From the NCBI GenBank assembly GCA_016839365.1, contig JAEOUH010000015.1:1-10809 (forward strand): 10,809 nucleotides of DNA, written 5' to 3'. The translations under genes were made by a program, and so were the position numbers. The notes under the pieces are model-generated. The model did not search any database and had not been told where the DNA came from. It saw nothing but the letters and a program-made list of their open reading frames with translations. This DNA is from Candidatus Hermodarchaeota archaeon. GTDB taxonomy: Archaea; Asgardarchaeota; Hermodarchaeia; Hermodarchaeales; Hermodarchaeaceae. Below, piece by piece: positions 7,487 through 9,238 of this stretch (its first letter is position 1; every line of letters begins with the position of its first letter).

Positions 7487-8983
7487 TCAATGAATCGGCA
7501 GCACTTTCTTAATGAACTCTGTTAGTTTGGTGATTTTGATTGGTTTTTCTTCACCGGTTTTCATGTCACGGACATTCACAGATTTCTCCTCAAGTTCTCG
7601 CGGTCCAACGATGATAACAAGGGGAATCTGCCGTTTTCCTGCATCATCTAGATGCTTAGTCAGTGACCATGAAAAACCGTTGAAAATAGTTCGAATTCCC
7701 TCGGTTCGGAGTTGTGAGGCGATTTCGCGACAGGTACGCAATTGTTTCTTTGTAACAGCGGCGAGATAAACATCAGCTGGGGGGTCAGGTGGTGGAAGCA
7801 AGTTCATTTCCTCCGCCAGCTCCAATATCACCGTCTCACCGAAACCAAATCCAGTTCCTGGCAGGCGTTGACCTTCAAAGATACCAACGAGATCATCATA
7901 TCGTCCTCCACCTGCAATGGCTCGGGGCAGTCCACTACTCCGGTCCCAGGCTTCAAAGACGATACCCGTATAGTAGTCTAGCCCACGCGCAATTCCGGCA
8001 TCAAATTCACACACATCAGTGATTCCTAAATCCTCTAACTGAGTCGCTAGTTGACGTAGGGGATCCAGGGCTTTTTGTGTAGCTGTGTCCAAGGAAAACT
8101 GTTCCATTTTCTGAATGAACTCTTTTGGCGTTCCCCGAATCGCGGAGAATTCTGTGAGTTGCTCTGCTGCTTGTAAGTCCACTCCGGCTTTTCTAAGTGC
8201 CTTGATCAACGCCTTACTTTGAAGTTGAGGTAGATTAGCTTTGAGTGTGTCAATCAGTTTTGAACGGGGAAGTTTGGGCTCTTCTTTTTGTTTTCCAATG
8301 AAGAAATGTCGGAGTTTGAGAGCGACTTCCTCGGCTTTCTTCGCGGAGGTACCGCCCTTTATCAGTTGGTCTACAATTGCTTCTTGTAATATTTTTTCCC
8401 GTCGGTCTAAGACGCGGATAATGTCGATGTAGTTAGTAAGCCCTAGGGATTCGATGAAGCTTTGAACTAACCGGCGATCATTGATCCGGATGACAAAATC
8501 AGCTGGCGTAAAATTCAGACTTAGAATGATTGCAGCGAGTACGTTTATGACCTCTGCGTCGGCGGCGATGTCTTCTGTGCCTAAGATGTCGACATTCAAT
8601 TGCCAAAACTCTTTGACCCGACCTCGTTGTTGTGTCTCGTCTCGAAAGACACGTGAAATCGAGAACCACCGGATAGGACGCGGGTAATACTGCTGTTGGG
8701 CGGCAAGCATACGGGCTAGTGAAGGTGTGGTTTCCGGACGAAGGACTAGTTCCCGTTTCTTCCGATCAGTGACTTTGAAGGTCTCCTCAACTAGGGATGG
8801 CCCAGATTTAAGCTCGTACAATTCTAAGGGTTCAACTGTTGGGCATTCATACTCGATATAACCGAACATTTTTGGAATCTGACGAAAGGCTTGGAGTATC
8901 CGATCAATCCGCTGATAGAGTTCCGGGTAGAAATCCCGAAATCCACCCACTGCAAGGTCTTTTCCGCGTTTCATCGTCACCAA
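7487..8983 (-). CDS. hisS: Histidine--tRNA ligase
   Basis: LRPETT, motif 2 FRDETQQRGRVKEFWQ, ARGLDYYTG, AGGGRYDDL, GFGFG and a C-terminal anticodon-binding domain. The start could be ATG 8974. Confidence 0.95.
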   Translation of the reverse strand: MVTMKRGKDLAVGGFRDFYPELYQRIDRILQAFRQIPKMFGYIEYECPTVEPLELYELKSGPSLVEETFKVTDRKKRELVLRPETTPSLARMLAAQQQYYPRPIRWFSISRVFRDETQQRGRVKEFWQLNVDILGTEDIAADAEVINVLAAIILSLNFTPADFVIRINDRRLVQSFIESLGLTNYIDIIRVLDRREKILQEAIVDQLIKGGTSAKKAEEVALKLRHFFIGKQKEEPKLPRSKLIDTLKANLPQLQSKALIKALRKAGVDLQAAEQLTEFSAIRGTPKEFIQKMEQFSLDTATQKALDPLRQLATQLEDLGITDVCEFDAGIARGLDYYTGIVFEAWDRSSGLPRAIAGGGRYDDLVGIFEGQRLPGTGFGFGETVILELAEEMNLLPPPDPPADVYLAAVTKKQLRTCREIASQLRTEGIRTIFNGFSWSLTKHLDDAGKRQIPLVIIVGPRELEEKSVNVRDMKTGEEKPIKITKLTEFIKKVLPIH

Positions 8984-9028: not shown

Positions 9029-9183
9029 TGGTGCCGGGACAGGGATTCGAACCCCGACCTAAAGCTTTCTGCATCCCATCTTTGAAAATGGGCTTCCACA
9101 GGCTTCAATGCTACCATTGCGCCTGGGCAAATACCAGTTTACACCTTCGGGATCCAGTGAAGATACACTGGAATAATCCCGGC
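9029..9183 (-). tRNA. tRNA-His(GUG) with three BHB introns (8/9, 15/16, 37/38); CCA encoded
   Basis: Exons 9183-9176, 9145-9139, 9116-9096 and 9066-9029 splice to the 74-nt cloverleaf GCCGGGA TG GTGT AATGGTA GCAT T GAAGC CTGTGGA GCTTT AGGT CGGGG TTCGAAT CCCTG TCCCGGC A CCA. U8, A14, G18G19, the A15:U48 pair and the TTCGAAT loop are all correct. An oligo-T run follows. Confidence 0.92.
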
Positions 9184-9224
9184 ACGGTGCCCCGGCACGA
9201 GGAAATGTTGAAACAAGCCCTCCC

Positions 9225-9238
9225 ACAAAAAGCTTTCC
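9225..9238 (-). promoter_or_regulatory. Putative BRE/TATA-like promoter of tRNA-His
   Basis: Minus strand GGAAAGCTTTTTGT; same AAGCTTTT core as upstream of aIF1 and DUF4430. Confidence 0.4.

Follow-up and report, generated by a model that had tools for sequence, protein, structure and literature searches.

Introduction

Non-canonical and multiple BHB introns of archaeal tRNA genes were reportedly described by Marck and Grosjean in 2003. The introns of this kind in Thermoproteales and Asgard archaea are similar to those considered here in that they are short, have a 4-bp central helix and two 3-nt bulges, are cut by EndA and joined by RtcB, occur several to a gene and are overlooked by standard finders. 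An intron located beside or inside the acceptor stem makes the same bases necessary for both the splice signal and the most stable helix of the tRNA. We know of no explanation so far of how precursors resolve this conflict. In the tRNA-His gene described here, in contrast to the archaeal BHB introns above, the BHB of an intron between nucleotides 8 and 9 (8/9) conflicts with the acceptor stem, for which a dedicated upstream element seems to provide the remedy.

Split tRNAs of Nanoarchaeum equitans and Caldivirga maquilingensis have complementary leader and trailer sequences that are later discarded (PMC4090602, PMC4033280). In split tRNA genes, as proposed for the present gene, transcribed extra sequence base-pairs, holds the tRNA pieces and presents the BHB to the endonuclease. 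However, split tRNAs are assembled in trans from separate halves and the endonuclease itself trims the extra sequence, whereas in this tRNA-His the pairing would act in cis, the helper mimics the 5′ strand of its own tRNA and its removal at G1 would presumably be carried out by RNase P. Leader-trailer or alternative-helix switches of pre-tRNAs and riboswitch-like leaders are also comparable, as two mutually exclusive helices share one strand and processing flips the winner. Unlike in riboswitch-like leaders, there would be no ligand here; excision of the intron would be the switch, and the competing strand exactly duplicates the one that it replaces.

Two reviews mention leader pairing solely for split and permuted tRNAs, and the words 'leader' and 'decoy' are absent from a preprint on Asgard tRNA introns (bioRxiv 10.64898/2026.10.13.758758). 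No published description of a leader-borne copy of an acceptor strand was found in a full-text literature search.

The tRNA-His(GTG) gene and the repeat in its leader

The window, which is the whole stretch of DNA analysed, corresponds to a complete 10.8-kb contig of a draft genome (G000) of 2.2 Mb in 93 contigs. ARAGORN and Rfam detected no tRNA in the window, in which the tRNA-His gene is unspliced. A tRNA-His(GTG) gene was read by hand on the minus strand (9183-9029), with introns at 8/9, 15/16 and 37/38. When the three introns were removed, ARAGORN called a 74-nt tRNA-His(GTG). The acceptor stem, GCCGGGA/TCCCGGC, is followed by A73, an encoded CCA and a T-run. Coordinates of all features are given in Table 1.

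Introns were delimited by the rule that the upstream exon and the intron each end in six bases made up of one 4-nt helix strand plus 2 nt, which is identical to the BHB definition in the Asgard tRNA intron preprint (bioRxiv 10.64898/2026.10.13.758758). All three tRNA-His introns showed the archaeal BHB form, with a 4-bp central helix, two 3-nt bulges and inner stems. The central helix of intron 1 is formed by C3-G6 (CGGG) with CCCG (9151-9148); the bulges are AU|U and AA|G, the inner stem is CCAGTG/CACTGG, and the outer exon-exon helix is weak, comprising one G-C pair plus G-U pairs. Acceptor bases 3-6 are taken up by this central helix, so that one 5′ strand can form either the splice signal or the acceptor stem but not both. 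A preliminary description of this DNA had stated that the 8/9 BHB needs these four nucleotides out of the acceptor stem, and our reading agrees with it. The 5′ part of the gene was read in 17 genomes from both genera, and intron 2 was present in every one of them.

The minus strand from 9199 to 9177 reads CGTGCCGGG-GCAC-CGTGCCGGG-A. This is a direct repeat of 9 nt with a period of 13 nt. In an exact search of the whole window, CGTGCCGGG occurred only at 9191-9199 and 9178-9186, both on the minus strand. A match with one mismatch, on the plus strand at 9030-9038, is the complement of the DNA encoding the tRNA 3′ end CCCGGCACC. The second copy of the repeat corresponds to positions −3 to +6 of the tRNA-His gene, with G1 at 9183, and overlaps the gene start. 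The leader copy GTGCCGGG is complementary to nt 67-74 (CCCGGCAC) and lies 26 nt after the end of the promoter-like element GGAAAGCTTTTTGT. Sequence reading and the exact search thus bore out both the repeat and its location downstream of a putative TATA box, as they had been given in the preliminary description. From the usual archaeal spacing between TATA box and start, we infer that transcription would begin at about 9201-9198.

The motif TTCAAC on the minus strand (9207-9212), about 10 nt before the expected transcription start, is conserved in the genus. It reads CTCAAC in a few members of the genus and in the sister genus, and may be a promoter-proximal element.

The gene for histidyl-tRNA synthetase (HisRS, 7487-8983, minus strand) is located directly downstream of tRNA-His on the same strand, and a SUI1 gene is located upstream; the other neighbours encode a zinc-ribbon protein and an ArsA/Get3-like ATPase. 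An integration scar or target-site duplication was considered and rejected, as only 4 nt separate the copies, the intron follows the second copy, and no integrase or mobile-element gene is found nearby. A further ARAGORN call of tRNA-His(GTG) in G000, with a 14-nt intron (C54:10304-10409, minus strand), is in fact a tRNA-Ile(GAT) whose D-loop is interrupted by an intron, which leaves the window gene as the sole tRNA-His found in the genome. Two EndA paralogs, RtcB and an RNase P RNA are encoded as splicing and processing machinery, and the two EndA-family genes suggest a two-subunit splicing endonuclease, a kind known to cut non-canonical introns.

Table 1. Coordinates of the tRNA-His(GTG) gene and its leader in the window, and of the related features on other contigs (C) of genome G000.
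Feature	Position	Strand	Remark
Promoter-like BRE/TATA element GGAAAGCTTTTTGT	9225-9238	-	conserved in both genera
Upstream (leader) copy GTGCCGGG	9191-9198	-	equals -2 to +6 of the 5′ acceptor strand
Spacer GCACC	9186-9190	-	complementary to exon-2 nt G9-U13 (GGTGT)
Leader positions -2, -1 (GT)	9185-9184	-	directly 5′ of G1
Exon 1, nt 1-8 (GCCGGGAT)	9176-9183	-	invariant in all orthologs
Intron 1 at 8/9, 30 nt	9146-9175	-	read from sequence
Exon 2, 7-nt micro-exon GGTGTAA, nt 9-15	9139-9145	-	invariant in the genus
Intron 2 at 15/16, 22 nt	9117-9138	-	helix GTGT/GCGC, inner stem CTGG/CCAG
Exon 3, nt 16-37, anticodon GTG	9096-9116	-	spliced tRNA call
Intron 3 at canonical 37/38, 29 nt	9067-9095	-	helix CTGT/GCAG; inner stem covaries
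Exon 4, nt 38-76	9029-9066	-	T-arm and 3′ acceptor strand
3′ acceptor strand TCCCGGC (within exon 4)	9039-9033	-	
A73 (within exon 4)	9032	-	
Encoded CCA (within exon 4)	9031-9029	-	
T-run	9028-9024	-	after exon 4
tRNA-Leu(TAA) leader copy GTGCGGGG	C19:56903-56910		33 nt after TTTTAA box, 40 nt before G1
tRNA-Leu(TAA) leader and gene	C19:56903-57055		locus L158:404-556
EndA paralog	C43:37410-37664	-	
EndA paralog	C19:55223-55483	+	
RtcB	C19:38833-40143		
RNase P RNA	C80:3030-3407		175 bits

Conservation of the leader copy and its association with the 8/9 intron

In the genome collection the class comprises 19 species in two genera only. The 8/9 intron together with the upstream copy was found in 13 genomes of the same genus, one genome of the sister genus (G017) and four metagenome contigs. 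The metagenome contigs were added when metagenome and genome collections were scanned for exact matches to a 16-mer of the anticodon arm, and one of them (L068) represents a form absent from the genomes. Most matches in these scans were due to chance; five genome contigs that also matched were apparent duplicates of sampled genomes.

The consensus of the leader copy was GTGCYGGG in all 14 genomes carrying it. The sole substitution was C to T, found in G001 and G005 of the same genus and in G017 of the sister genus, and it leaves a G-U pair with G70 intact. At the following position of the copy, position 7, any of G, A, T or C was found, whereas the downstream GCCGGGAT was invariant. In the intron loop and ahead of the promoter, the orthologs had diverged too far to be aligned. 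The fact that the copy was kept while intron loops and flanks diverged indicates that it is under selection.

Both the copy and the 8/9 intron were present in 14 genomes, neither was present in three (G015, G016 and G018, all of the sister genus), and no genome had only one of them. The preliminary description had asked whether the repeat accompanies the 8/9 intron in relatives, and these counts answer that it does. In G017, the sister-genus member with intron and copy, the order is GTGCTGGGAC, GCATCTAT and the real strand, and the spacer site reads GCATC, as against GCACC in the window gene. The spacing between the conserved GGAAAGCTTTTT box and the real 5′ end in G015, G016 and G018 equals that between the box and the copy in genes with the intron. 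The co-occurrence in tRNA-His could reflect shared origin. Since copy and intron were possibly gained or lost as one block, it would represent few independent events, maybe only one or two.

A second case in tRNA-Leu(TAA)

In a search for a second case, all tRNA-like 3′ ends of genome G000 were scanned for their 5′ strands. The tRNA-Leu(TAA) gene (C19:56945-57055) was found to contain a 23-nt intron at 8/9, in which G3-G6 form the central helix with CCCC and the inner stem is TCTC/GAGA. Its spliced sequence was called by ARAGORN as a tRNA-Leu(TAA) of 88 nt. The leader copy of this gene covers nt 1-6, GCGGGG(G), and was kept, together with the intron and most of the 31-nt spacer, in 13 genomes belonging to both genera. 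Both the His and the Leu copies are located between promoter and G1, about 26-33 nt after a TATA-like box. Neither an 8/9 intron nor a copy was found in 15 tRNA-Leu genes from other Asgard families, and the sampled tRNA-Cys genes of other Asgard families had no acceptor-proximal intron and no copy.

As a genome-wide control, we examined the 35 tRNA genes of G000 in which both acceptor strands were recognisable. With G-U pairs allowed, nt 1-6 recurred within the 100 nt preceding the gene in two of them. These were precisely the two genes with an 8/9 intron, tRNA-His and tRNA-Leu(TAA), in which the sequence after U8 is intron and not D-arm; none of the 33 others had either feature. A scan of all sampled loci gave no further convincing copy, the few extra matches being neighbouring tRNA genes or chance. 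It is the Leu case that makes the association with the intron convincing. Judging from these sequences, the copy appears to be confined to introns whose BHB uses acceptor-stem bases, with about two to three independent events.

A second gene resembling tRNA-Leu(TAA) was observed in G005 (C36:2717-2837, L178). Its exon 2 and 3′ part are intact, its 5′ strand reads GAAGGGGC and it is preceded by unlike sequence. This gene may represent a pseudogene or else a paralog that has diverged.

Predicted folding of the precursors

The tRNA-His precursor, from the copy to CCA, was folded by partition-function calculation for 14 orthologs with and without the leader. With the leader, the copy was paired with the 3′ strand at a probability of 0.85-1.0 in every ortholog, and the native acceptor stem did not exceed 0.06 (0.00 in 13 of the 14). 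The central helix of the BHB reached 0.62-0.99 in 11 orthologs, and in the other three the BHB was not the majority of the ensemble. Without the leader, the native acceptor stem had a probability of at least 0.97 and the BHB of at most 0.01 in all 14 orthologs. This comparison had been suggested in the preliminary description, and its outcome fits the surrogate strand proposed there: in the predicted structures the leader switches the 3′ strand to the copy and the real 5′ strand to the BHB. The same switch of the acceptor strand was predicted for tRNA-Leu, with a probability of 0.93-1.0 for the copy and 3′ strand. The canonical central helix of the Leu intron had a probability of 0.00-0.05 in all 13 orthologs; in the three orthologs whose MFE structures were inspected, the strands of the BHB are shifted by one G relative to that register.

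For both genes, the RNAalifold consensus was the fold with bound copy and BHB. In tRNA-His, 99% of alignment cells were paired in the helix of copy and 3′ strand, 98.5% in the central helix of intron 1, and 96.9% between the spacer GCACC and exon-2 nt G9-U13 (RNAalifold columns 9-13 with 56-60). The spacer helix kept its pairs through one-sided changes of C to U and of G to A, and the inner stem of intron 1 showed two-sided changes at six of seven pairs. True covariation is not seen in the helix of copy and 3′ strand because acceptor stems never vary. The Leu leader was also predicted to pair with the D-loop (GACTAAGC with GCTTGGTC) and with the 3′ strand of the D-stem, and one A-U pair between leader and D-loop is changed to G-C in all four sister-genus sequences.

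Constrained folding gave the copy-bound fold an advantage before splicing of about 6 kcal/mol in tRNA-His and 8-15 kcal/mol in tRNA-Leu. After splicing, the advantage in tRNA-His was about 1-3 kcal/mol in most orthologs, nearly unchanged in three and larger in one; in tRNA-Leu it was 0.7-8.7 kcal/mol. According to the secondary-structure energies, the copy is thus still favoured as the partner of the 3′ strand after splicing. Two other structures of the leader were ruled out: a hairpin GUGC/GCAC, whose closing bases are not conserved, and a tRNA-Sec-like 9/4 reading of the 9-bp helix, for which there is no 7-nt UCA loop.

Discussion

The repeat is most likely a functional part of the tRNA-His precursor. 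We propose that the copy acts as a surrogate strand which holds the 3′ acceptor strand and so frees the real 5′ strand for the 8/9 BHB, and we put the probability of this at about 0.55. The preliminary description had offered such a strand as one of two explanations. The conservation of positions −2 to +6, the co-occurrence with the intron, the Leu case and the predicted folding switch all speak for it, and it is kept here as a model of the precursor.

According to this model, transcription would most likely start at or just before the upstream copy, which would bring the copy into the precursor. The copy (−2 to +6) would pair with A73 and C74 as well as with the 3′ acceptor strand, and the 5-nt spacer would pair with the first bases of exon 2. 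As these pairings would occupy the partners, the genuine 5′ strand would be free to pair with CCCG inside intron 1 and to form the BHB for the splicing endonuclease at 8/9. This BHB would compete directly with the 7-bp acceptor stem and would lose without the copy. The two leader helices may also tether the 8-nt exon 1 to the tRNA between cutting and ligation by RtcB, a role suggested by the fact that they extend the very short outer exon-exon helix of the BHB. Removal of the intron would take away part of the stabilisation of the fold, so that the native acceptor stem and the cloverleaf could form, and RNase P would then remove the leader at G1. We infer the order of events and the tether role from the predicted folds. 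It is plausible that the native fold is regained ahead of cleavage by RNase P, and this is the weakest step of the explanation. As the energies favour the copy-bound fold after splicing, native refolding would have to use tertiary interactions or proteins that are absent from the model.

The other explanation in the preliminary description placed the mature 5′ end at 9196 and assumed a 13-nt fourth intron (9189-9177), cut by way of a CCGG/CCGG helix and giving G7-U66. CCGG is indeed self-complementary, and the spacing of the bulges fits the BHB rule, with a 4-nt helix and 2 nt before each cut. However, several results weigh against this explanation, which is very improbable. In the downstream copy nt 1-8 are invariant, which would be natural in an exon and is left unexplained by a fourth intron. 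With G, A, T or C at position 7 of the upstream copy, U-U or C-U would occur at 7-66 in three of the 13 aligned orthologs (G011, L068 and G012). The CCGG/CCGG helix has no flanking helix, was predicted with a probability of 0.0000 and costs 10-15 kcal/mol relative to the MFE. Since the Leu strand GCGGGGG contains no self-complementary tetramer, such a mechanism cannot account for the two genes alike. An assembly or sequencing duplication, the former of which the preliminary description had also named, could be suspected from a repeat that is short and tandem-like in a draft MAG, but it is hardly conceivable: the same arrangement with species-specific substitutions was present in 14 independent assemblies and four metagenome contigs. 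This presence indicates that the repeat is due neither to assembly duplication nor to chance.

It is also unlikely that the pairing of copy and 3′ strand serves processing order, quality control or protection of the 3′ end, with a BHB that could form without the copy. In the quality-control variant, RNase P, handling of the CCA end or aminoacylation would be blocked until splicing is finished. Such a role would be consistent with the pairing predicted at about 1.0 before and after splicing, which would bar the precursor from the native fold, and with the complementarity of −2/−1 to 74/73 in many other tRNA leaders of G000. However, it gives no reason for the copy in just the two 8/9-intron tRNAs among 35, and it leaves the complementarity of the spacer to exon 2 beside the splice site unexplained; moreover, the BHB was predicted at no more than 0.01 in the absence of the leader. 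We consider it rather improbable that the copy is a functionless evolutionary scar, left by a partial tandem duplication or by a block insertion that brought the intron and a second exon copy, and conserved only through its overlap with the transcription start or promoter-proximal signals. The copy does sit where the real 5′ end sits in the intron-less genes of the sister genus, 30 nt after the TATA-like T-run, and the upstream copy of G008 consists of an intact GTGCCGGGAT (−2 to +8) followed by ACCA. The Leu leader contains blocks collinear with tRNA nt 1-38 (p = 0.001 in G000), but p was 0.35 and 0.17 in the other two of the three species tested. Several points argue against a scar: the conserved bases are exactly those pairing with the 3′ strand, whereas positions 7-8 of the copy drift and the neighbouring neutral sequence is saturated with change. 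Two unrelated tRNAs show one design with different spacers, and a scar that out-competes the acceptor stem should be harmful and hence lost. The sequences make it a reasonable guess that the copy originated by partial duplication of the tRNA gene and was later shaped by selection; the His spacer resembles tRNA nt 71-75.

A surrogate strand would constitute a new variation within archaeal tRNA-intron biology, and one that is readily testable. If the model is true, the built-in spare strand is a simple RNA-only solution to the conflict between splice signal and acceptor stem, and it also explains how the 8-nt exon is retained during splicing. It predicts an obligatory order of processing. It is tentative, with slightly less than an even chance in our estimation, that surrogate strands represent a general, unpublished class of cis-acting RNA elements in Archaea that tolerate introns adjacent to the acceptor stem and force splicing to come first. 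If they do, holding of the 3′ strand and tethering of a tiny exon 1 would allow introns to persist beside the acceptor stem, and 5′ trimming would take place only after splicing. Partial duplications of the 5′ part of a tRNA could be one route to tolerating such introns. The surrogate strand also bears on the frequent gain of introns in some Asgard lineages, and an upstream copy of nt 1-6 is a signature that could reveal hidden, heavily interrupted tRNA genes.

Other observations on the tRNA genes of the genome

ARAGORN called only 24 tRNAs in G000, and many interrupted genes were overlooked or misread. CCA is encoded by every real tRNA gene detected; the exceptions among the 24 ARAGORN calls are two doubtful ones. 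In many tRNA leaders of G000, positions −2/−1 are complementary to positions 74/73, for example GT before G1 and an ACCA 3′ end, so that the acceptor helices of these precursors would extend to 9 bp. The minus strand at C29:777-804 contains a T-arm and the 3′ acceptor strand CTGGCCC-G-CCA, with no matching 5′ strand within 400 nt upstream; it may belong to a split, permuted or very heavily interrupted tRNA. The tRNA cluster to which tRNA-Leu(TAA) belongs and the EndA gene on C19 are about 1.5 kb apart.

The sole tRNA-His has T at −1 (9184), hence no encoded G-1, has A73, and adjoins HisRS. Thg1 (PF04446) was found in none of the 19 genomes of the class. Taken from the sequences, this suggests a G-1-independent histidine identity system.
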